This document shows, piece after piece, positions 37,433-56,285 of a DNA stretch of 64,000 nucleotides (position 1 is its first letter; the number at the start of each line of letters is the position of its first letter). The notes below the pieces were generated by a model, which saw only the letters and a program-made list of their open reading frames with translations, was not told the origin of the DNA and made no database searches. The stretch is from Candidatus Micrarchaeota archaeon (GTDB lineage Archaea; Micrarchaeota; Micrarchaeia; Anstonellales; Bilamarchaeaceae), in contig JBFLVJ010000004.1 in assembly GCA_040758595.1 (NCBI GenBank), positions 3,896 to 67,895 of the forward strand. Direction: 5' to 3'. The position numbers were made by a program, and so were the translations under genes.

Positions 37433-38107
37433 TTAAGGCGCCCCGTACTTCTTCATGTATTCCAGGTACTTCTGGTATGTATTCTCCTTGACATAGACCT
37501 TGCCGTCATCCAGCTTCCTCTCCTTGAGGTGGTTGAAGGCCATGTTTATGTCGATTATCGAATGCACCGGCACTCCTGTCTCTTCCGTGAATTCCTGGAT
37601 GGCGCTATCCTTCTTGCCCCGCTCTTTCCTGTCCACGGCGATGACGATGCCGACGACCTCTGCCTTCAAGGTCTTCTGGAGCTTCTCTATGGCCTCCACC
37701 TTGGTGCCGCCGGTCGTGAGCACGTCATCGACCAGGACTATCTTCTTGCCGAAGTCCAGCCCCTGGCTGCCCACGAACACGCTGTTGGCGTCCGCCCCGT
37801 GGAGCTTCATCTCCTTGCGGTCGAAGAGCCATCTCTTGTCGATGCCATGGAGGTACTTGAGCTCGATGGCCGCGCTGATGGCGAGCGGGATGCCCTTGTA
37901 GGCCGGGCCGAATATGACGTCGAACTTGTCGCCGAAGCACTCATGTATCCTGGAGGCGTAGAACCTGCCCAGGTCCGCTATCGCCGAGCCGCCGGAGATG
38001 ACACCCAAATCCACGAAATAGGGCGAGATCCTCCCGCTCTTCAAGGTGAACTCCCCGAAACGCATAGCTTCGTTCTTCGCCAGGAATTCGATGAATGAGA
38101 TGTTCAA
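37433..38107 (-). CDS. pyrE: Orotate phosphoribosyltransferase
   Basis: PRPP-binding motif VLVDDVLTTGGT. Confidence 0.9.
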   Translation of the reverse strand: MNISFIEFLAKNEAMRFGEFTLKSGRISPYFVDLGVISGGSAIADLGRFYASRIHECFGDKFDVIFGPAYKGIPLAISAAIELKYLHGIDKRWLFDRKEMKLHGADANSVFVGSQGLDFGKKIVLVDDVLTTGGTKVEAIEKLQKTLKAEVVGIVIAVDRKERGKKDSAIQEFTEETGVPVHSIIDINMAFNHLKERKLDDGKVYVKENTYQKYLEYMKKYGAP

Positions 38108-38231
38108 AAGACCACCGGAGCGATTGCGAGGGCAAGCTATATATGTATTCGTGTCAGTCGTCTAATCTATTGTTTAATCATATACTTTCTATAATTTACA
38201 ATTTAACGATTTTTATCGACGAAGAAATATT

Positions 38232-39599
38232 CTACCAGATGTTCTTTACAGTATATGTACTTTTCCTAGCGAATCCAGTGTGTTCTAATAGGCCAGCGTC
38301 TACCAGGTTATTTAGCATTTTTAATGCTGTCACTCTGGACACATTCAGGAGCGTCATTACCTGCGTGGTCGTTATTGTTTTTCTCTTAGACAGTATGCTC
38401 AGAAGCCTATTATATCGTGCTTCTCTTGCCCGAGCGGCCGAAAGATAGATCCTTGCATAAAAGACTGATGGGGTATCCCCAATCAACTTGAACTCAGGAG
38501 CCGTCTTTCCAAGCAATCGCATCTCCTCCTTTATCTTCCATATCCCCTCCCCTCTGCCTTCATATAGCTGAGCTGGTGCTAGAAAATTGTATAGTCCTTC
38601 ATTGGGATGATAATGCCCATGCATGGATTGTATGTCCGTCCACATCCTCTGCGTAAGCACTGCCGGGTTTGATACGTCGAAACAATCGTCATATATGCGA
38701 ACGCGGATATGCTCGGTGCTCTGGTAGTTGCGATGGGCGACCGCATTCGTTATCGCCTCACGTATTACCTCGATGGGGATGGGGCTCTTTTCAATCATTC
38801 TGGCTCCTTGGTACTGCCTTACGACAGGTAGATTCTGTGAAACAAGATTAACGGCTTCTTCGATTAGCTTATGTGCTGGAAGGGATATGGCAATCGGCTT
38901 ACCCACAGCTAAAGGCGGCGCGCCAATCGGGTTGGCATACTTTTGTATCTCTATAAACGCACCTTCGATAAAGTCATCCGGCTTTTTAGCTAATACAATG
39001 ACCCCCCGGATGTTTATGGAACCATTTGCGTCTTTGATCGAATCTATGATGGTCTGTCTCTGTTTGCCCTTTGCTTTGGTGTAAAATTCTAGTTCATCGG
39101 TATCCAGATCATTGACTGTAGCAGTCGTCGGCGTCCCCTCGGCATTAACGGTTCCATACCGGAGATGGTATGCTCGTACTTCCTCCGGAGACAGCTGCCT
39201 TTTCTGGTCCCCGTCACGGTCGTAATAGATATTCTTATAGGAACAGGGACGGAGCTTATCCAAGTCTCTGACTAAGATGAGTGCAACGTGATTGTTACCC
39301 ATTTCGAAAACCTTGCTTTCAGACCACGGTTGGGGTCGTATGTCTTTTTTAGCATTTGCAAACTCTTTCTGGAATTCTTCCGGATCTATCCCGGTTATCT
39401 CAAAACCATGTCTGGAATCGCTCTGCCCAACGAGTATGATGCCTCCATTCTTCGTCGCTAGGCATGCAATTTTCTCTCCAATGCTATCCTGAGTCCCTCT
39501 GGTGCGATCGAAGTTTTCATCCTCTGCTCTCTTCAGCAACTCCCGTAGATCTTCTTGGGTAATCTCTGAGAGTCTCTTCCAGCGTTGGAGGACGTTCAT
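38232..39599 (-). CDS. AlbA_2 (Schlafen-like divergent AAA) + HATPase_c_4 + C-terminal wHTH protein (putative ATP-binding transcriptional regulator)
   Basis: N-terminal …ESIGEKIACLATKNGGIILVG… AlbA_2-like region and central …IREAITNAVAHRNY… HATPase_c_4-like motif. C-terminal HTH (…TTTQVMTLLNVSRVTALKMLNNLVDAGLL…). The gene and its flanks are markedly AT-rich relative to the window. Start taken at MNVLQRW. The ORF opens at 39674. Confidence 0.6.
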   Translation of the reverse strand: MNVLQRWKRLSEITQEDLRELLKRAEDENFDRTRGTQDSIGEKIACLATKNGGIILVGQSDSRHGFEITGIDPEEFQKEFANAKKDIRPQPWSESKVFEMGNNHVALILVRDLDKLRPCSYKNIYYDRDGDQKRQLSPEEVRAYHLRYGTVNAEGTPTTATVNDLDTDELEFYTKAKGKQRQTIIDSIKDANGSINIRGVIVLAKKPDDFIEGAFIEIQKYANPIGAPPLAVGKPIAISLPAHKLIEEAVNLVSQNLPVVRQYQGARMIEKSPIPIEVIREAITNAVAHRNYQSTEHIRVRIYDDCFDVSNPAVLTQRMWTDIQSMHGHYHPNEGLYNFLAPAQLYEGRGEGIWKIKEEMRLLGKTAPEFKLIGDTPSVFYARIYLSAARAREARYNRLLSILSKRKTITTTQVMTLLNVSRVTALKMLNNLVDAGLLEHTGFARKSTYTVKNIW

Positions 39600-39651
39600 G
39601 CATAATTGTTTAATTGTAAAGTTTATATAGTTTACTATTAAACGATTGTTC

Positions 39652-40416
39652 CTACCTGCCCTTGGCGCCTTCACGGACAGCCTTGACCATGTCCTTTATC
39701 TTGGAGACCGAGCTCTCCTTCTCGAAAGCGGTCCCGACCTGGATTATGTCTGCCCCTGCCTTGATGACGTCCTTAGCCTGCGCCGGGGTCCGTATCCCGC
39801 CAGCCGCGATATAGGGTATCGATATTGACGAGCGCACCGCCTTGACCATGTCGAGCGGGATGTGCCCGCTCTCGGGGTTGCTTCCCGCATCGGTGATGAA
39901 GAACCTGAAGCCCATGCATTCAGCCGCCATGCCGAACGCGGCCGCTATCTTCGGCTTGTTCCTGGGGATCCTCTTGGCATCCCCGACCCAGCCGACGGTC
40001 CCTCCTGGCTCCACCACCACGTATGCCACGGGCAGCGGCTCGATGCCGGAGTATTTGACCACCGGGGCCGCGAGCATCTGCGCCTCGCTTATCCAGTAGG
40101 TATTCCTGGAGTTGAGCATGGACATGAAATAGACCGCATCTGCGTATTTGGTTATGGTCCCGATGTTCCCGGGGAAGAGCACCACGGGCCTGGAGACGTT
40201 CTCCTTTATCTCCTTGGCGACCACGTCCAGGGTCTCTCCCTGCACTCCGGTGCTGCCGCCTATCAATATGATGTCTGCCCCGCCCTCGTCAGCGTTCTTG
40301 GCGGTCTTGACCGCGTCCTTGGGGGACTTGTAATCCATCGGGTCTATAAGCGCGAAGAGGAGACCTTTCTTGGAGGCCAGCTCCTCATGGATGTACCTTT
40401 CTATCTTCCCTTCCAT
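39652..40416 (-). CDS. Geranylgeranylglyceryl phosphate synthase
   Basis: PcrB/GGGPS TIM-barrel motifs (…GGADIILIGGSTG…, …PYIAAGGIRTPAQA…). Confidence 0.85.
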   Translation of the reverse strand: MEGKIERYIHEELASKKGLLFALIDPMDYKSPKDAVKTAKNADEGGADIILIGGSTGVQGETLDVVAKEIKENVSRPVVLFPGNIGTITKYADAVYFMSMLNSRNTYWISEAQMLAAPVVKYSGIEPLPVAYVVVEPGGTVGWVGDAKRIPRNKPKIAAAFGMAAECMGFRFFITDAGSNPESGHIPLDMVKAVRSSISIPYIAAGGIRTPAQAKDVIKAGADIIQVGTAFEKESSVSKIKDMVKAVREGAKGR

Positions 40417-45866: not shown

Positions 45867-46081
45867 CTAGACCCTATATGCTCCTTTCTTGCTGCCGCCT
45901 AACAGCTCGGAGAACGTGTCTCCGATGGAGCGCTTCAAGGGCGCTTTGACTATGAATGAACGCACATGGGGATACTGCTTGATCAGCTCGAAGCTGAAAT
46001 AGTACTCTGTGAGCTCTCCCCTGGCTTCCTTTCGGGGTTCCTCTATCTTTGCGGACGCCTTGGCCTTCCTGCCGGTCATTC
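45867..46081 (-). CDS. Small hypothetical protein (71 aa), translationally coupled to the upstream gene
   Basis: The ATG abuts the upstream stop (TGAATG). Lys/Arg-rich N-terminus. No recognisable family. Confidence 0.3.
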
Positions 46082-46780
46082 GAAGCGCCTCCTTATGTAG
46101 CCCTCGCGTATCAGCATGTTGAGCCCTTCTTCGGCCCTGGTGACCGCTACAGAGTTCGCCTTCGAGAACTCCCTGATGTCTATCGTGCCGTTGTGGAGCT
46201 TTATCCAGTTGTAGAGGCCCTCCTTCAGCAGGTCGTCTCCCATGCCCGATAGCTGGGTGAGCTTCTTCTGCAGCTCGTCCCTCTTCCTCTCGCACTCCAG
46301 AAGGAGCCGGGTATTGGCCTCCCCCGAGCGCACCAGGTCATCGTATTTTGCGCTCATATCGGTGTACTTGGACTGGAGCTCGCTCAACTGGGTTGAGAAC
46401 TCCAGCGCATCCCTTCCGACTATCTTGGACGTCTCGGAAAGCAGGGTGTTGATGTGGGTGAAGATGCCCGTCGGCTTCACATCATAGTACTCCTCGGCGA
46501 CCTGCAAAATGTTCAGGAACGTGGGCATCAGATCCAGAAGCCTCGCCACCTTGCTCCTCTTGGCCGAGAAGCTGTAGAGGAAGTCGATGGCCTCCGGGCC
46601 GAACTCCACCCTGTACTCCAGGTATGGTTGGCCCCTCAGATCCGCGCCCTTTATCTTCTCCACGGTGAGCACATTCTTCGCATATGTTATCCTTGTGAAT
46701 CCCAGCCCTGACAGAAGCGAGGCGAGGCTCTTGAGCGGCTTCTTCTGCTGCGCCGCGATGGTTATCTTCTCTTCGCTCAT
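46076..46780 (-). CDS. Hypothetical protein with C-terminal winged-HTH-like segment
   Basis: …IDIREFSKANSVAVTRAEEGLNMLIREGYIRR… looks like a wHTH. Lies 12 nt downstream of the ATPase gene on the same strand. Confidence 0.5.
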   Translation of the reverse strand: MSEEKITIAAQQKKPLKSLASLLSGLGFTRITYAKNVLTVEKIKGADLRGQPYLEYRVEFGPEAIDFLYSFSAKRSKVARLLDLMPTFLNILQVAEEYYDVKPTGIFTHINTLLSETSKIVGRDALEFSTQLSELQSKYTDMSAKYDDLVRSGEANTRLLLECERKRDELQKKLTQLSGMGDDLLKEGLYNWIKLHNGTIDIREFSKANSVAVTRAEEGLNMLIREGYIRRRFE

Positions 46781-46792
46781 ATCTCATGCCTC

Positions 46793-48382
46793 CTATTCGC
46801 TCTCGCGGCCGTCTTCCAAAACCACGTTCACGACCCCCTTGGTCGCCTTCCTCATCCTCACCAGCGAGAACACCTTGATGAGGTTCTTCTCGTCTATCCC
46901 GAGCTGCCTCAGGAAGGATATGATGGATGGCTTGGAATAGCCGAACTTCTCCAGCACCGCCACCAGCTGCTCGCCGTCCAGCAGGCCGTCGCCCTTCTCG
47001 AACTCGGTCTTGATGAGGCCCAGCTGGCTCTCGTTGAGGCCTATCTCGTAGAGCATCCTTACGAACTGCTCCCTCTCAATCTCGACAATCATCTCTCCAC
47101 CCCGTATCTTGTATATGAGAAGCGGCTCTTCGCCGTCTATCTTCTCCATGAGGAATGTCATGACCCTGGACTGCCTCTCGGCGAATATCATGTTCACCGC
47201 GGCGTCTCCGACACCGAACTTGGATATCTCCCCGTCGATGAAATTGGAATAGCCGATGGAGTTCTTCACATAGTCCCTGAACTCCTTGAGTATCAGCCTG
47301 AGCACGAACACGCTGCCGATGTTGCTGAATATCGTCTTGTGCATGTCGGTCGGGTTCTGCGTGGCGATTATCAGCGAGAAGTTGTACTTGCGCCCTTCCC
47401 TGACTATCGTTATGACGTCGCTCCTCTCGTCCTGGGCTATCTTCCACGCCTCATCCAGCACCACGAACAGGCGTACGTTCTTGTTGTCCTTCTGCATGCC
47501 TTCTAGGCGCATGAGCTCTTTTATGTACTGCAGTATAGTCAGGCCCGCGAGGCTGCGCATCTCCTCGCTCGGCAGCTCATGGAGGTCGATGCAGACCAGG
47601 CCGCTGGTCGTCAGCTTCTTGATGTCCAGCGTGGATGTCCCGGCGAAGAAATCAGAGCCCTCAGCCGTGAACCTCTTGAGGAGCCTGGCGGCCTTCTTCT
47701 TGCCGGTCCTCTCGAGCATCCAGACGACATGGGTGAGCGTAGGTCTCTCGCAATCCTCTCTCTTGCAGATCTCGACCAGCGCCTCTTCCAGCTCCTCTTT
47801 CCCGAGCCTGGGCTTTCTGCGCCTCGTCTGCTCCTCCTTCATGGCGCTCGCCTGCTCCTTCATGCTGGGCTTCTGCTTTCCGCCCCGATAGTAGACGTAT
47901 TCGAGCGCTTCCTCTATGTCATCCCTCTCGTTCGGGTGGTCCTTGAGGCTGAGCAGGATGTCGAGGGCGGATATTATCTGCTTTATCCTGCTCCTTGTGG
48001 GGAGGCCGACCAGATCCAGTATGTTGAGGCGCTCCTTGGCGAGGTTTATCACCCTTCCGCCCGCCTGCTTGACCCATTCGTCGTATTCGCCCACCCAATC
48101 CAGGATGACCGCGTTGGTGTTCCAGATTAGGGACGCTCTTGTCAGGAATGTCTTGACGGTGTACGATTTGCCCGAACCGGTTATGCCGATGATGGCGATG
48201 TGCGGATTGATGAGCTTGGCCGGATTCCAGAACACCGGCGTGCGGAGGAACCTGGTCTTGCCTATGTATACGCCCTGCGTCGGAAGGGAGAGGAGAAGGT
48301 CCTTCCTCGGCTCTGGAGGGTGCACAAGGATCATCTTGCGCGCCACTTCCTTGGAGAGCATATAAGATGGTTTAAGGGTCAT
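46793..48382 (-). CDS. HerA/FtsK/VirB4-superfamily ATPase (DUF87-like)
   Basis: Walker A HIAIIGITGSGKS and Walker B …LFVVLDEAWK…, with arrangement typical of HerA-like/VirB4-like ATPases. 529 aa. Confidence 0.7.
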   Translation of the reverse strand: MTLKPSYMLSKEVARKMILVHPPEPRKDLLLSLPTQGVYIGKTRFLRTPVFWNPAKLINPHIAIIGITGSGKSYTVKTFLTRASLIWNTNAVILDWVGEYDEWVKQAGGRVINLAKERLNILDLVGLPTRSRIKQIISALDILLSLKDHPNERDDIEEALEYVYYRGGKQKPSMKEQASAMKEEQTRRRKPRLGKEELEEALVEICKREDCERPTLTHVVWMLERTGKKKAARLLKRFTAEGSDFFAGTSTLDIKKLTTSGLVCIDLHELPSEEMRSLAGLTILQYIKELMRLEGMQKDNKNVRLFVVLDEAWKIAQDERSDVITIVREGRKYNFSLIIATQNPTDMHKTIFSNIGSVFVLRLILKEFRDYVKNSIGYSNFIDGEISKFGVGDAAVNMIFAERQSRVMTFLMEKIDGEEPLLIYKIRGGEMIVEIEREQFVRMLYEIGLNESQLGLIKTEFEKGDGLLDGEQLVAVLEKFGYSKPSIISFLRQLGIDEKNLIKVFSLVRMRKATKGVVNVVLEDGRESE

Positions 48383-48430
48383 TTCCCTACCTCGACGGTT
48401 CTCTTATCTCTTAGGCGATATATAAATCTT

Positions 48431-49225
48431 TCAGAAGAGCGCATCCTTGATCTCTTCCTGCGTCGTGGGGAAGAAGTACTCCCACTCGAAGCATTTGAGC
48501 ATCTCAAGATCAGAGAGCTCGCGCACATCGCAGCCCAGGGAGCTCGAGAGTATGGTCTTGAGCTCCTTGGCCTGCCTCGTGACCCGGCTTAGCGCCTCAT
48601 CCCGGGTGAGGCCGAAGGCGGTCGTGGTCGCGAAGGCGACTATCTCCACCGGGCGCTCGCCCTGGGTTATGCGGTCCAACAGCCTATTCCAGTATGCCAG
48701 CTCGCGGTCCATGCGCATGCTCTCGTCCGCGGCCATCTTGGCTTCCTTGGCCTTCTTGGCTTCGACGGCGCCGCGCTTGCTCTTTATCTCCTCGATGTGT
48801 TTGGACAGGTCGAGCGTGCTTATCATGAGCGTTACCTTGACTATGTATTTGAGGGAGCTTATCGCTTTCTCGAAAGATTCGAACATGGTCTTCTTCTCGT
48901 CCGACCCTTTGTCCATGGAGCTCTCGTAGAATTTTATCTCCAGGAACTTGGAGGCGTAGTAGCCGCCCTCGCCCTTCTTCACTATGTGGTCCCTGCTGGA
49001 AGGGACCTCGTAGCCGCCGTCCCGCACCTCGATTATGTTCGCGGCCCTTGTGAAGAATGGGATGAGAAGGTAGCCGTATTTCCATAGCAGCAGCCCCAGC
49101 ATGAAGAAGAATCCTGCGATTATGGGGGTGAGCGGATTCCCTGAGACGAGCGATATAATGACTGCTACGAGGCCGCCCAGAAGAGAGACCACCGTCACCG
49201 CTCTATTGATGAACATATCACACAC
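48431..49225 (-). CDS. Membrane protein: two N-terminal TM helices plus ~200-aa cytoplasmic coiled-coil domain
   Basis: TM helices …VTVVSLLGGLVAVIISLV… and …IIAGFFFMLGLLLW…, then a Lys/Glu-rich coiled coil. No recognisable family. Confidence 0.5.
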   Translation of the reverse strand: MCDMFINRAVTVVSLLGGLVAVIISLVSGNPLTPIIAGFFFMLGLLLWKYGYLLIPFFTRAANIIEVRDGGYEVPSSRDHIVKKGEGGYYASKFLEIKFYESSMDKGSDEKKTMFESFEKAISSLKYIVKVTLMISTLDLSKHIEEIKSKRGAVEAKKAKEAKMAADESMRMDRELAYWNRLLDRITQGERPVEIVAFATTTAFGLTRDEALSRVTRQAKELKTILSSSLGCDVRELSDLEMLKCFEWEYFFPTTQEEIKDALF

Positions 49226-49252
49226 CTACCATTTCCGTTTTATAAATGCTTG

Positions 49253-50320
49253 TCATATCGAGGCGAACGTCTTGAGCCCTATCTCGCTCCCGAGTATGTT
49301 GCCAAGCTCCTTCACGAAGACCACGGTCACCAGGAGAGAGAAGAGGGGCGCTATCACCGAGTACAGGGCGGTCCGAGAGAGCGCATCGCTGTTACCTTGG
49401 AGTACCAGGGTGACATCGCCAGTGAAGTCGAGGCTCTGATTCTGCGTCACATTGGTGTAGAGCTCCTGTTCCTGGAGGAAGTCGTCGCACAGCGTATCGG
49501 TCGCGCTGACGTTCGTCACGTTGGTTATGAGTTCGTAATCGTCGGGATCGCACCTAGCGCTAAGGAGGTCCAGTTTGCCCGCGATCGCGTAGTTGCCGTT
49601 CAGGTCGATCACCGGGATGGTGGCATAGAACCGGTTCGAGGTCAAGTTGCCCATCCCGGATGTCGCATCCAGCACCTCCTCCTGCGGGCTCGGGAATATG
49701 AGGATGAATGTCGGGTAGAACAGGTAGAGCCCGAGCGAGAGCGCGATCAGGAAACCGCCGACCTTCCTTGTGGCGAACAACGTCCTCAGCACCAACCCCA
49801 CCGGGAATAACAAGCCCAAAGCGCTCTGCCCTATGAATGCCGCTATCTGCGTGTTGAGCTGGACGAGCGTCATCAGGAGGTTGGTCGAGAGGAGCTGCCA
49901 TCCAAGCGCATCCGATACGGCGGACAGGTTCTTGAAAGGCGAGATCGCGAATGAGCCGAAATCCAGGCTCAGCCCCTGGTAGTATCCCACAAGAGCCAGC
50001 GTGCCGACTATACCCTGGAGCATGAGGAACAAGGAATCGTTGAGGCCGCCTAGCATGCAGCTCAATTGGACCATCACATCTCCCTGGGCGCAGCTTTCGG
50101 TCACGACCGATGAGCTGACCATGGCGACCAGCTCGATGACCGCAGCGAAGGAGCCGATTATGGCCGCGTTTATCACCGACTGGATGAGCTCTTCAAGGCC
50201 GAAATGCTCCAGCCTCTTGATGCCAAAAGCCCTTCCCAGCCCGACCATGAGTCCCGCGAGAACGATGGATGCGGTCACGACCACTACCGCGATCTCTACC
50301 CCTATGAATCCGTCCGCCAT
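49253..50320 (-). CDS. Polytopic membrane protein (~7 TM) with ~100-aa extracellular loop bearing N-glycosylation sequons
   Basis: Hydrophobic helices throughout. The loop carries NLTS, NVTNVS and NVTQNQS sequons. First gene of the minus-strand operon. Confidence 0.55.
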   Translation of the reverse strand: MADGFIGVEIAVVVVTASIVLAGLMVGLGRAFGIKRLEHFGLEELIQSVINAAIIGSFAAVIELVAMVSSSVVTESCAQGDVMVQLSCMLGGLNDSLFLMLQGIVGTLALVGYYQGLSLDFGSFAISPFKNLSAVSDALGWQLLSTNLLMTLVQLNTQIAAFIGQSALGLLFPVGLVLRTLFATRKVGGFLIALSLGLYLFYPTFILIFPSPQEEVLDATSGMGNLTSNRFYATIPVIDLNGNYAIAGKLDLLSARCDPDDYELITNVTNVSATDTLCDDFLQEQELYTNVTQNQSLDFTGDVTLVLQGNSDALSRTALYSVIAPLFSLLVTVVFVKELGNILGSEIGLKTFASI

Positions 50321-50418
50321 CGGACATGGATGATTGCCCTAATATTAAATAGCTTTCCGTCCCTTGCTCAGGGGCGGAGGCAGAACAGCGCGTCTTAGTT
50401 GACATGGGCCCGGGAAAC

Positions 50419-50438
50419 CCAACGTCTTCAGACGTTGG
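50419..50438 (+). repeat. Perfect hairpin CCAACGTCT-TC-AGACGTTGG, candidate IS200/IS605 left-end subterminal hairpin
   Basis: 9-bp perfect inverted repeat ~75 nt upstream of the tnpB fragment start. IS200/IS605 elements carry subterminal hairpins at their ends. Confidence 0.35.
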
Positions 50439-50513
50439 ATGAAAGGGCCACCATTTCCGCGGAAATGTGCTGCGTCAGTTTTTCTTTATAGATAAACCAA
50501 GGAATTTCTATTC

Positions 50514-51101
50514 ATGGGGATGAATAGGGCATGGCGCTACAGATTATATCCTTCCAAAGCCCAGGAACAGGACTTGAACAGTTACCTATATGGATGCAAA
50601 AACCTCTGGAATTCTCTTCTTGAGTTTACAAAAGAGCACTATCAGAAGACCGGAAAATTCCCTAAAAGAAGCCAGTTGCATCTCCTCACAAAGAATGTGG
50701 GGCTTTATTCCCAAGTCGCCCAGAATGTTGCTGACAGGCTTGCTAAATCGCTGAAAGGAATCCCTGCAAGAAAAAGAGCAGGGAAGAAAGCAGGATTCCC
50801 TAGATTCAAATCCATAGAGAGGGTGAAATCATTCACTTATCCTCAGTTTGGCTTCAAACTAGAAGAGAAACTGGAACTCTCTGGCATAGGAGCTATCGCA
50901 ATCAAAAAGCACAGAGATATCCAGGGCACAATCAAGACCTTGACAATCAAGCGATCGCCTTCAGGAAAATGGCATGCAATTTTCACTACTGAAACAAAAG
51001 GGATGGTTCCTCACAAGAAAACCGGAAAGAAGATTGCAGCTTCCCATGCTCTAGTCCCCGAACGGATCATTTCCCGGCCGGCAGGCGAGGATCTCTTTTA
51101 G
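50514..51101 (+). pseudogene. tnpB: IS200/IS605-family TnpB (OrfB) N-terminal fragment, 3'-truncated
   Basis: MNRAWRYRLYPSKAQEQDLNSYLYGCKNLWN… is the conserved TnpB N-terminus. The ORF ends after 195 aa, so RuvC-II/III and the zinc finger are absent. GC is lower than the surroundings. The 3' end overlaps the convergent CDS 51051-52928. Confidence 0.65.
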
Positions 51102-52928
51102 CGATAGCATGACTGAAGAGTGGTCCCTCCTCCGCGGATCCTTCAGTCCGACCCTGATGTTCTCCTCTATCGGCACTCCCTCCTGGCAAGCGTAGAACAG
51201 GGCATCGTTGGCGTTCTCCTTGACTTGTGGCTCAGTATCACGAAGAGCGCTGATAAGGGCCTGGACGGCTTCTTGGGGAATGCTATCCCCCCGGTAGGCT
51301 ACCTCGAGGAAGAGCTTGCTTGTCCGTATCCGGACCTCTGCATCCGCATCCGAGAGTTTCTCCACGAAATACTGCACGTCTCTTGTTATGCCATTTGCGA
51401 TGACGCTGCGGCAGAGCTCATCGAACATGGTCATGTCGGTATCCGTCTTTGCATCAGCGGGCGGTGCCATGGGATGCATCGGCCCTCCCATCACGTCCTC
51501 TAATCCATGCGGTTCGGGCGCTGCTTCGGGCTCAGGCACGCTCCCGAAAGCCTTCTCGAAGGCTTTATCGAATTCGTTGCTCCCGTTCTGGGGCCGGGCA
51601 GACGCTGTAAGCGAACTCGGCTTCGGAAGGTTTACCTCTCCCTTGGCTACCCTGCTCTTTATTATGAAAAGACCCGCAGCGTTGAGCCGCATCTCCACAT
51701 GGGTACCGGCCACCACGAAGCTCTTGCTGCATCTCCCTTTGAGTATGAATCTCCTCTGGTATGGCATCTCCTTGGAATAGGCATCCGGATTGAAATCGTC
51801 CGCACGATAGAGCTCTAGGCTGACGCTGTCGCCGCCCTTGCCGAAACCTGAACCTACCGGTCCCAGGCGGAACCCGTGGCCTACATCCATCGTAAGTATG
51901 TCCACCTTCCGATTCAGATAAACGTTTTCCAGTTCGGGGCCTGCCTTGCGCCTGCCACTGAAATCCGGCAATATCGTGTTCGGCCTCAGATGCCTTATCT
52001 CGGCCAATATGCGTTCCCTGCCGCCATTGATGGTGATCCGGTACCCATTATCGGTGACCAGCACCGCCTCTTTCGTCCCGGCGGAATCGACCATGATTCT
52101 CTCATAAGTACCTGATACGCCGTGGGTCACCTTCAGGTGGATCCGACCCTCTTCCCGGGCCAGCAATTCAACCGAACAGTCCGGTGTCACATCCGAGCTT
52201 CCCCCAGCGTCCGCTTTGCCGAAAAGCGCCACTACCGTCCCGTCCCGGGGCAAAAGGGGATCGGTTATCTCAGGCATCTCCCAGCCAGCATCCTCGATGT
52301 ACTCCTCCGGGTCTACGGCATCAAATATGCTAGGTCCGTCATCGCCTTTGCCTGCAGATGCGGTTCTCTCTAACTCCGCGGCCATCGCATCTATTATCCT
52401 CCTGTCCTTGGCCGCCTTTAGCGCTTCTGCTTCCGCTTCGGCCTTCTCAGCCTTCCTTTCCTCGGCGATTCTCTTCAAATCAGCAAGCGATGTTAGCACT
52501 GATGGGGCTGGCCCGTCCCTTTCAGGCTCTTCTTCCGCCTGGGCTTGTGCTGCGGCTTCGGGCCTGGCGTCTTCCCTAATCCCCACCAGGTTGCCGACAT
52601 CAAGCTCCTGGGTGATCTCTTTCGGACCATGCGCTGCAGGGGCCATCTGCGCTCCTGCTAGCGAATCGAGCACCAGATCGTCACCCCCGAGGGCCATCGG
52701 AGCGGCAGCGGCCGGCGCGGTAGCGTTCACTCTCGAAGCGGCCCCGTCCCTGACCTCGATAAGGTCCCTTATATCGAGCTCCTGGGTCGGGCTCCCGGTA
52801 TCTATCTCCCCTCGGATTATCCTTGTCATATGGGGCTCATCGCTCGGCTTGGACCATCGGAGCCTGCCGATATCTGTGGCGAGAATCCCGAACCTGGTCG
52901 CTAAGGAACGATTCATCCTCTTCTCCAT
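51051..52928 (-). CDS. Hypothetical protein with duplicated N-terminal motif and C-terminal HEAT-like repeats
   Basis: Duplicated segment (TQELDIRDLIEVRDGAA / TQELDVGNLVGIREDARPEAAA). Ala/Glu-rich coiled coil. C-terminal …AEVRIRTSKLFLEV…PQVKENANDALFYA… HEAT/PBS-lyase-like repeats. Confidence 0.5.
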   Translation of the reverse strand: MEKRMNRSLATRFGILATDIGRLRWSKPSDEPHMTRIIRGEIDTGSPTQELDIRDLIEVRDGAASRVNATAPAAAAPMALGGDDLVLDSLAGAQMAPAAHGPKEITQELDVGNLVGIREDARPEAAAQAQAEEEPERDGPAPSVLTSLADLKRIAEERKAEKAEAEAEALKAAKDRRIIDAMAAELERTASAGKGDDGPSIFDAVDPEEYIEDAGWEMPEITDPLLPRDGTVVALFGKADAGGSSDVTPDCSVELLAREEGRIHLKVTHGVSGTYERIMVDSAGTKEAVLVTDNGYRITINGGRERILAEIRHLRPNTILPDFSGRRKAGPELENVYLNRKVDILTMDVGHGFRLGPVGSGFGKGGDSVSLELYRADDFNPDAYSKEMPYQRRFILKGRCSKSFVVAGTHVEMRLNAAGLFIIKSRVAKGEVNLPKPSSLTASARPQNGSNEFDKAFEKAFGSVPEPEAAPEPHGLEDVMGGPMHPMAPPADAKTDTDMTMFDELCRSVIANGITRDVQYFVEKLSDADAEVRIRTSKLFLEVAYRGDSIPQEAVQALISALRDTEPQVKENANDALFYACQEGVPIEENIRVGLKDPRRRDHSSVMLSLKEILACRPGNDPFGD

Positions 52929-53232: not shown

Positions 53233-53256
53233 TCGGAAACCGAAAACTCCACTTCG

Positions 53257-53381
53257 CGACCGTAGTCTATCGGTATGATTCGAGATTGCCATTCCGCCTT
53301 TTAGGAAAAGGCGGCCCAAAACGGGCTGGAAAGGCGGCAGCAATGATCTCGCGGACCGGGTTCAATTCCCGGCGGTCGCAT
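53257..53381 (+). tRNA. tRNA-Gly(GCC), intron-containing (~52-nt intron in anticodon loop)
   Basis: Manual fold: acceptor GCGACCG/CGGTCGC (G1-C72, C2-G71, G3-C70), discriminator A73, U8, A14, G18G19, anticodon stem CGAGA/TCTCG, loop TTGCCA (U33, GCC, A37), T-arm CCGGG-TTCAATT-CCCGG. The intron carries a strong internal hairpin CCGCCTTTT/AAAAGGCGG. No encoded CCA. Confidence 0.7.
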
Positions 53382-56177: not shown

Positions 56178-56285
56178 GGGCCCGTGTGGCAACCTGGATA
56201 ACCGGCGGGGCTTCGGAAGCTCTGGACCTATCGCGGTCCATGCTGGTGCTACCCCGAGATAAGGGTTCAAATCCCTTCGGGCCCG
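56178..56285 (+). tRNA. tRNA-Arg(TCG), intron-containing (~34-nt intron)
   Basis: Manual fold: acceptor GGGCCCG/CGGGCCC, discriminator G, U8, D-loop AACCTGGATA (G18G19), anticodon stem CGGGG/CCCCG, loop CTTCGG|A (U33, TCG, G37), intron with GGACC…GGTCC hairpin, T-arm AAGGG-TTCAAAT-CCCTT. Confidence 0.6.

Follow-up and report, generated by a model that had tools for sequence, protein, structure and literature searches.

We examined a block of five closely packed minus-strand genes (positions 45867–50320) in a 64-kb stretch of contig JBFLVJ010000004.1 from Candidatus Micrarchaeota archaeon. That whole stretch is referred to below as the window, and coordinates count from its first letter. The genes encode, in order of transcription, a polytopic membrane protein (M7TM), a protein with a transmembrane (TM) hairpin (M2TM), a P-loop ATPase, a cytoplasmic protein (P234) and a micro-protein (P71) (Table 1). 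An earlier reading of this DNA, made from its letters without database searches (the sequence-only reading), had proposed the block as a candidate DNA-translocation or defence module, similar to the Ced and Ted systems of other archaea.

The open reading frame (ORF) list of the window contains all five of the genes named in that reading, with some revision of their boundaries. M2TM is listed as a 264-amino acid (aa) ORF that starts at a GTG (48431–49225), but because its homologs are 260–261 aa long and begin with MF.NRAV, its start is likely the ATG at position 49216 (261 aa). The gap between M7TM and M2TM is then 36 nucleotides (nt) rather than the 27 nt first given, while the following gaps of 48 and 12 nt stand. 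The small gene at the end of the block exists as proposed, but encodes 70 rather than 71 residues and lies beyond the limits originally drawn for the block (46076–50320). Its junction with P234 had been described as TGAATG; it instead reads GAATGACC, a 4-nt ATGA stop/start overlap through which P71 is, as judged from this arrangement, translationally coupled to P234. The operon is probably transcribed from an archaeal promoter marked by the TATA-like element CTATTTAATATTAGG, read directly from the DNA upstream of M7TM; the position of this element so near the M7TM start would imply a short or absent leader.

Table 1. Genes of the block and neighboring features in the window
Feature	Position	Strand	Description
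M7TM	49253–50320	−	355 aa, polytopic membrane protein, candidate VirB6/CedA-type channel subunit
M2TM	48431–49216	−	261 aa, TM hairpin + alpha/beta domain + inserted coiled-coil hairpin
ATPase	46793–48382	−	529 aa, HerA/VirB4-superfamily P-loop ATPase
P234	46076–46780	−	234 aa, cytoplasmic, coiled coil + C-terminal winged helix
P71	45867–46079	−	70-aa basic micro-protein
TATA-box-like AT-rich element CTATTTAATATTAGG	50336–50350	−	16–30 nt upstream of M7TM ATG
TnpB/IS605 N-terminal fragment	50514–51101		
tRNA gene (Rfam)	53256–53380	+	125 nt
tRNA gene (Rfam)	56178–56285	+	108 nt

Relationship of M2TM and the ATPase to CedB

The ATPase displays the Walker A (GITGSGKS) and Walker B (VVLDEAWK) motifs by which it had been assigned to the HerA/FtsK/VirB4 superfamily, together with a helical C-terminal extension. 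Its Walker A motif begins at residue 66, which leaves the protein without a HAS barrel or a VirB4-type N-domain. Two Pfam models, DUF87 (65.5 bits; cut-off 23.2) and AAA_10 (58.4 bits; cut-off 27.5), matched it above their cut-offs, whereas FtsK_SpoIIIE fell below (21.5 versus 24). The highest score among NCBIfam models was obtained with CedB (NF041017; 98 bits against an equivalog cut-off of 700), followed by the CD1110 VirB4-like (78 bits; cut-off 325), CedD (70 bits) and VirB4_plasma (67 bits) models. The HerA repair and defence models scored lower than these CedB/VirB4-type models (39–53 bits), with the HerA equivalog models at 39–50 bits against cut-offs of 800–970, and TIGR00929 (VirB4) gave 45.9 bits against 643. 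PADLOC returned HerA (89.7 bits) and mad8 (82.6 bits), and the PDB sequence matches included 8wiv and 8xau (E-values of 1e-15 to 1e-16). Concatenating M2TM with the ATPase brought the CedB score from 98 to 99.5 bits, short of the 700 bits that define membership.

M2TM consists of an N-terminal TM hairpin (residues ~2–56) followed by an alpha/beta domain into which a coiled-coil hairpin is inserted. A profile of M2TM was searched against 1.84e9 representative proteins and yielded 164 clusters. The profile finds a 603-aa fusion protein (P0499; E = 1.7e-5, match over residues 17–230) that continues past its M2TM-like part into a P-loop ATPase. P0499 matches the NCBIfam CedB model from end to end (221.7 bits, positions 9–587 of 590), and its gene directly follows those of an 87-aa CedA1 (PF27251) and a 474-aa CedA (PF27251), forming a contiguous CedA1-CedA-CedB locus on a Thermoproteota contig (L088:2188–9812). 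The gene for Rpo13 adjoins that locus on the same contig; this subunit of RNA polymerase is, to our knowledge, known only from Crenarchaeota/Thermoproteota. The full-length model match, the gene neighborhood and the presence of Rpo13 identify P0499 as CedB. Since this CedB scores 221.7 bits against a cut-off of 700, the curated NCBIfam model misses divergent but genuine Ced loci. A second DUF87 ATPase gene (608 aa, possibly CedD) is located 2 kb upstream on the other strand of the contig.

Profile–profile alignment with hhalign placed M2TM residues 76–236 on residues 70–227 of the P0499 CedB (probability 89.8%, E = 1.8e-6) and ATPase residues 17–397 on its residues 252–582 (probability 98.6%, E = 5.5e-16); the BLAST comparison with P0499 gave 25% identity over 160 residues (58.9 bits). 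M2TM and the ATPase are colinear, in the same order, with the N- and C-terminal halves of single-chain CedB, and we therefore conclude that a CedB-type motor is split into two genes at this locus. These alignments identify M2TM as the detached, membrane-anchoring N-terminal half of a CedB-type ATPase, similar to the N-terminal domain (NTD) of VirB4, such that a membrane anchor and a VirB4-NTD-like domain lie ahead of the P-loop domain as they do in Ced. Both the ranking of the ATPase models and this colinearity with CedB of a real CedA1-CedA-CedB locus bear out the Ced/Ted-like part of the sequence-only reading. Pfam did not find a VirB4 N-domain in 26 diverse M2TM-like proteins, and profile searches of the PDB with M2TM (narrow and broad alignments), M7TM and P234 returned only coiled-coil or winged-helix noise.

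Two further features of the ATPase vary among its relatives. A Lys/Glu/Arg-rich insertion of ~45 residues (residues ~165–212) is present in the window and its closest relatives (511–536 aa) and missing from most homologs (472–497 aa). At one mapped locus (L076:2439–5486) the ATPase gene holds an intein (LAGLIDADG_3 + Intein_splicing) just after the P-loop region, and ATPase ORFs are similarly enlarged to ~3 kb in two more Micrarchaeota species (L045:4807–7887 and L074:5186–8179).

Hydropathy and an AlphaFold2 model (predicted local distance difference test 80, predicted template modeling score 0.70) indicate ~6–7 membrane helices in M7TM. From its N-terminus, the protein comprises a TM hairpin, a helical bundle at its center, an extracellular loop (residues ~210–315) and a C-terminal TM helix. 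Seven N-x-S/T sequons are present, five of them within residues 225–294. Four cysteines (two pairs, C77/C88 and C257/C278) are invariant and located in predicted loops; the extracellular loop is predicted to hold the five N-glycosylation sequons and two of the four cysteines. The helical bundle carries an invariant motif, P173-G175-L176-R179-F182-R185-G188-G189-F190.

Foldseek gave no significant match of M7TM in the PDB, and hhalign of M7TM against a single CedA sequence was not significant (P = 0.02–0.12). The local matches to CedA, though likewise not significant, are colinear: they pair the hairpin (32–70 with 28–66) and align the invariant family motif GLVLRT..FATRKVGGFLIAL with GILLHNIPFRISRAAGSTLIAF of CedA. 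A profile of the corresponding polytopic protein from a nine-gene cluster (described below) selects the same CedA segment with a score of 27.7, above all of 60 locally shuffled controls (maximum 25.2). CedA and M7TM are also laid out alike: a TM hairpin comes first, then a helical bundle and an extracellular domain rich in sequons, and finally a TM helix at the C-terminus. On these comparisons we regard M7TM as a likely, but unproven, VirB6/CedA-type channel subunit.

P234 consists of an N-terminal domain with no assigned family, a coiled coil (residues ~109–180) and a C-terminal winged helix (residues ~187–230), the latter two with marginal scores. The winged helix marginally matches that of CdvB (2xvc; E = 0.0077), and a marginal EAP30 match occurs in 9 of 33 P234 family members (best E = 7.8e-6). 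The P234 gene directly follows that of the ATPase in 81 loci, paralogous clusters included, and its product is probably an adaptor or a DNA-binding partner. P71 is kept in 39 loci, where a conserved core of ~40 aa (F.FEI.K.YP..RSFI.K.PLKKS) is found behind a variable Lys/Arg-rich N-terminus. Neither protein has a known counterpart among Ced or T4SS (type IV secretion system) components, and searches of Pfam, NCBIfam and PADLOC produced no meaningful families for M7TM, M2TM, P234 or P71.

Conservation, genomic setting and sister clusters

A scan of one genome per GTDB species recovered 155 relatives, and we mapped seven proteins of the window onto the best 80 loci (individual loci, also those outside this set, are cited here by L numbers). 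Almost all of these best 80 of 155 are labeled Micrarchaeota or subgroups thereof, and none is labeled as another phylum. The order M7TM-M2TM-ATPase-P234-(P71)-purD-transglutaminase is found in ~70 of the 80 species-level loci, and its recurrence in so many independent loci places the arrangement far beyond chance. Because this order, with purD and the transglutaminase-like gene, is so widely shared, the block is core and vertically inherited rather than accessory, in contrast to the 'typical accessory territory' of the sequence-only reading. A protein of a Candidatus Micrarchaeota metagenome-assembled genome (MAG) matches the ATPase at 100% identity, and homologs at 66–92% identity exist in more than 120 clusters, nearly all of them labeled Micrarchaeota. 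Homologs of M7TM and M2TM (55–92% identical) are all annotated as hypothetical and have no Pfam domain. No relatives were found in a scan of viral contigs, and tblastn against plasmids and phages gave only remote VirB4/TraC/DUF87 matches (22–27% identity).

Only the upstream edge of the block is variable, comprising a TnpB fragment (the IS605 remnant noted previously) and a 625-aa gene (51051–52928) with no counterpart in any mapped locus. Full-length relatives of the fragment sit at other positions elsewhere (L016, L020 and L052). In L016 (4706–5920) a related full-length TnpB (OrfB_IS605 + Cas12f1-like TNB) lies between M7TM and M2TM, so that the operon evidently tolerates an insertion sequence (IS) there. 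A spacer of 190 nt separates the TnpB fragment from the promoter region of M7TM. Three perfect short palindromes, at 50419–50438 (CCAACGTCT/AGACGTTGG), 50452–50467 (CATTTCCG/CGGAAATG) and 50508–50527 (CTATTCAT/ATGAATAG), lie in this spacer and across the start of the fragment; they could represent the end hairpins of an IS200/IS605 element, or else a terminator. The AT-rich DNA described beside the block amounts to a dip in GC (guanine plus cytosine) content to 0.49 that is confined to 50–51 kb. As for the adjoining tRNA gene, ARAGORN detected none in the window, whereas Rfam located two, both presumably intron-containing (Table 1).

Other genes are inserted between M2TM and the ATPase in several species. 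In two loci the inserted gene encodes a beta-helix/NosD-type protein of 1200–1259 aa, probably a surface protein (L017:3340–6939 and L019:3181–6957). Genes of 2.4–3.8 kb occupy this position in several species, and those of L009 (4571–6931), L011 (3874–6654) and L021 (4007–6631) have no family match. In Ca. Bilamarchaeum the intervening gene encodes an alpha/beta-hydrolase (L002:9016–9927).

In five deeper-branching Micrarchaeota loci (L066, L067, L069, L073 and L084), whose ATPases are 53–59% identical to that of the window, an 81-aa, two-helix pilin-like gene is found immediately upstream of M7TM. Paralogous Micrarchaeota clusters, with ATPases 42–46% identical to that of the window, contain one to three tandem pilin genes; the pilins of L083 reach Pfam gathering scores for both T4SS_pilin (27.2 versus 26.6) and TrbC/VirB2 (28.7 versus 27.9). 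These VirB2/TrbC-type pilin genes directly upstream in sister clusters again favor the Ced/Ted-like proposal. One MAG carries both a main and a paralogous cluster (L077 and L086). The order in L083 (4814–12483) is three tandem VirB2/TrbC-type pilin genes, an M2TM homolog, the ATPase, a 2-TM protein (127–177 aa), a P234 homolog and a TM protein of 780–870 aa; in this and similar clusters (L080, L082, L085 and L086) M7TM is not detectable. A second kind of paralogous cluster (L079 and L081) retains an M7TM-like protein of 372–396 aa.

A more distant relative is a strictly conserved nine-gene cluster on archaeal chromosomal contigs (L087:6400–14160, L089:4585–11925 and L090:2064–9938). It begins with a pilin (122–149 aa), a polytopic protein (342–359 aa), an M2TM-like protein (244–252 aa) and an ATPase (389–444 aa), and continues with proteins of 206–220, 215–280, 61–67, 97–103 and 750–754 aa. 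The polytopic protein is clearly homologous to M7TM (hhalign probability 99.9%), and the order pilin-polytopic-(M2TM + ATPase) matches CedA1-CedA-CedB. Proteins of 750–870 aa with TM segments follow the paralogous and nine-gene clusters, and toxin-antitoxin genes flank the cluster in L087. Alignment of the pilins with the N-terminus of M7TM covered 22 columns only (hhalign, E = 0.006).

A weakly pilin-like ORF of the window (38095–38448, E = 9) was dismissed, being antisense to a gene for a 480-aa Schlafen/AlbA_2 + HATPase_c_4 + DeoR-HTH protein (38232–39674, minus strand). The surrounding 38–39 kb segment is the only clearly low-GC stretch of the window (0.45 versus ~0.57) and resembles a small island of foreign DNA with no connection to the operon.

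Proposed function and rival explanations

We consider it probable that the block, chromosomal and vertically inherited, encodes a minimal translocon derived from a T4SS, of the Ced/Ted type and with a split CedB, and that it is fixed in Micrarchaeota. The polytopic glycoprotein M7TM would form the membrane conduit, in the position of VirB6/CedA. M2TM, in the position of VirB3/VirB4-N, would anchor the motor to the membrane by means of its TM hairpin and VirB4-NTD-like domain. The ATPase, corresponding to the C-terminal half of CedB, would presumably act as an oligomeric motor that drives a substrate or pilin through the conduit, and P234 and P71 would be accessory factors in the cytoplasm. The analogy with Ced makes DNA the most likely substrate, presumably moving inward during cell–cell contact with conspecifics or a host, although other macromolecules are possible. 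We also considered a further-reaching proposal, which taken as a whole we regard as unlikely: that the locus could be the counterpart in DPANN archaea of the essential Patescibacteria T4SS, a core, pilus-optional import port with a split CedB; that this port might take up DNA, nucleotides and other macromolecules from the host and could be the 'docking' complex that receives nanotubes; and that the second and third paralogous clusters, with their tandem pilins and large surface proteins, might serve host recognition or exchange between symbionts.

Several observations weigh against a Ced/Ted-type translocon. The ATPase is a separate family: its scores amount to no more than 14% of the cut-off for the CedB equivalog and 7% of that for VirB4. 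A search of the 64-kb window with hmmsearch revealed no pilin-like ORF (best E = 9), a pilin gene is not detectable in the ±7-kb flanks within the window's own clade, and the pilins of other Micrarchaeota clusters have no similarity to CedA1 by hhalign. The assignment of DNA as the substrate draws on the analogy with Ced, and strong conservation across the phylum would be consistent as well with a housekeeping function that has nothing to do with exchange.

The same components and homologies, with a difference in substrate alone, would make up a secretion or pilus-assembly apparatus for host interaction rather than a DNA importer, either building a short pilus or conduit or transporting protein, lipid or metabolites at the point of host contact; we judge this unlikely, though it is the main rival. 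Micrarchaeota are host-dependent, and ARM-1, a cultured relative, shows cell–cell nanotubes and a docking structure (PMC11329633); in the cryo-electron tomography study, however, these nanotubes are attributed to the host cell rather than to its DPANN partner (PMC11329633). The beta-helix/NosD proteins inserted into the clusters of L017 and L019 and the large TM-segment proteins that follow the paralogous and nine-gene clusters would suit such a role, but the version found in the window has no conserved effector or adhesin. The bacterial Candidate Phyla Radiation (CPR) offers a parallel, in which epibiotic growth depends on a chromosomal T4SS that lacks a relaxase (PMC12102498), whereas the Ced systems, the only experimentally characterized archaeal relatives, move DNA (PMC9905601, PMC11868833).

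Core conservation and fixed synteny throughout the phylum might also be seen if the block had a housekeeping function, as a DNA pump anchored in the membrane that segregates or resolves chromosomes at cell division, with the HerA-superfamily ATPase in an FtsK-like role. The intein of L076 can be read in the same way (inteins in P-loop regions are typical of essential genes), as can the ZapB-like coiled coil of P234 and its winged helix resembling CdvB/ESCRT-II. We nevertheless find such a pump improbable: the P234 matches are marginal, FtsK_SpoIIIE is below its Pfam cut-off, the extracellular loop of M7TM is predicted to be glycosylated and disulfide-bearing, VirB2/TrbC-type pilin genes (indicative of extracellular filaments) occur in ancestral and paralogous clusters, and some genomes carry two paralogous clusters (L077 and L086). 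Still more remote, and in our view highly improbable, is a T4SS borne by a conjugative or integrative and conjugative element, or a HerA-based anti-phage defence island, situated in accessory DNA. The TnpB/IS605 fragment and GC dip directly upstream, the PADLOC HerA and mad8 matches and the VirB4/TraC-type genes matched on plasmids could each be taken to favor it. The upstream TnpB is, however, a local insertion of an IS family that is found at other positions in other loci; the PADLOC matches reflect a generic HerA P-loop; and the plasmid genes are only remotely similar, with no relatives on viral contigs. The five proteins and their neighbors include no relaxase, VirD4-type coupling protein, integrase or plasmid backbone, the operon contains no nuclease or defence effector, PADLOC effector models match no partner, and no Sir2, NurA or DUF4297 partner is present. 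Together with the same chromosomal neighbors across the phylum, these absences contradict a conjugative element as well as the defence alternative of the sequence-only reading, which had correctly noted that NurA, a GspE-type ATPase and a type IV pilin are missing beside the ATPase. A HerA-NurA resection pair was likewise rejected, given the position of Walker A at residue 66 and a neighborhood of membrane proteins, purD and the transglutaminase-like gene in place of NurA, Mre11 or Rad50.

We found no paper that describes this locus or links Micrarchaeota with CedB; the DPANN literature that we checked does not mention a T4SS or Ced-type locus in Micrarchaeota, and the Ced/Ted study (PMC9905601) does not mention DPANN. 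One database record names a homolog of the ATPase 'DNA import protein CedB', and the affinity of the ATPase itself is therefore not new. Apparently new are the split architecture and the recognition of the 2-TM protein as the N-terminal half of CedB, along with the status of the block as core throughout the phylum, the sister and paralogous clusters that carry pilin genes, and the conservation of P234 and P71 as partners. For DPANN archaea, the means of obtaining DNA, nucleotides and other building blocks from a host are still in question, and no machinery dedicated to such transfer is known. Here, a module derived from conjugation machinery and fixed in the core genome throughout a DPANN phylum, strongly conserved, at times duplicated and at times intein-bearing, would be a concrete and testable candidate. 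It would also extend the Ced/Ted class of domesticated T4SSs outside Thermoproteota, and the ability of CedB to exist as two polypeptides would provide a natural domain boundary for structural work.

Comparison with known systems

The block shares its ATPase superfamily with HerA-NurA and with defence HerA systems (Sir2-HerA, DUF4297-HerA), and the PADLOC HerA models match its P-loop core. It differs from them in leaving no room for a HAS-barrel N-domain, in having no nuclease or Sir2 partner and in the membrane proteins that take their place. VirB4/TraG-like domains are also found in the giant SPEARE-type proteins of nanohaloarchaea, whose architecture is different from that of the window locus. 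The VirB3-VirB4-VirB6 inner-membrane complex of conjugative T4SSs (R388 TrwM/TrwK/TrwI; PDB 7o3v, 7o41 and 7o42) is among the closest known systems.

Ced (CedA, CedA1, CedA2 and CedB, later joined by CedD and CedE; Sulfolobales/Desulfurococcales) is, like the block, chromosomal and devoid of a relaxase and coupling protein. The system is inducible by DNA damage and imports DNA between cells. Its HerA/VirB4-type ATPase is anchored in the membrane, and the N- and C-terminal halves of this protein are homologous to M2TM and the ATPase of the window, respectively. The polytopic partner, CedA, is a VirB6 homolog with a CedA1-like N-terminus, and runs from a TM hairpin through a large extracellular domain to a TM helix at its C-terminal end; the pilin-polytopic-ATPase order of L088 is also that of the pilin-bearing Micrarchaeota clusters. 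In Ced, however, CedB is one polypeptide rather than two, pilin genes (CedA1/CedA2) accompany the system whereas the window has none, and P234 and P71 are not in the published component lists (PMC11868833). The sequence matches between M7TM and CedA, and between Micrarchaeota pilins and CedA1, are not significant, and the window belongs to a different phylum, a DPANN lineage for which DNA import would be proposed by analogy only. Ted (Thermoproteales; VirB6-like TedA, VirB4-like TedB and VirB2-like TedC; PMC9905601), compared here by its description only, is a domesticated T4SS derivative as well. In the paralogous Micrarchaeota clusters, the N-termini of the pilins resemble signal peptides and the proteins match the bacterial TrbC/T4SS_pilin families, as described for TedC, whereas TedB is a full-length VirB4, unlike the split motor of the window, and Ted loci carry ParA/VirC1-, Rad50- and HerA-like genes that are absent here.

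The T4SS of Patescibacteria/CPR comprises VirB4, VirB3-like, VirB6-like and VirB2-like parts, was found to be essential by transposon sequencing, and has been proposed to be co-opted for an epibiotic lifestyle (PMC12102498). It is bacterial, of the MPF-FATA (mating-pair formation) type, and unlike the window it has a full-length VirB4 and a TrsD partner. The two are alike in being minimal, relaxase-less and part of the core genome of an ultra-small, host-dependent lineage (PMC12102498), and the Micrarchaeota block would parallel, within the archaea, the chromosomal T4SS on which bacterial CPR depend for epibiotic growth.

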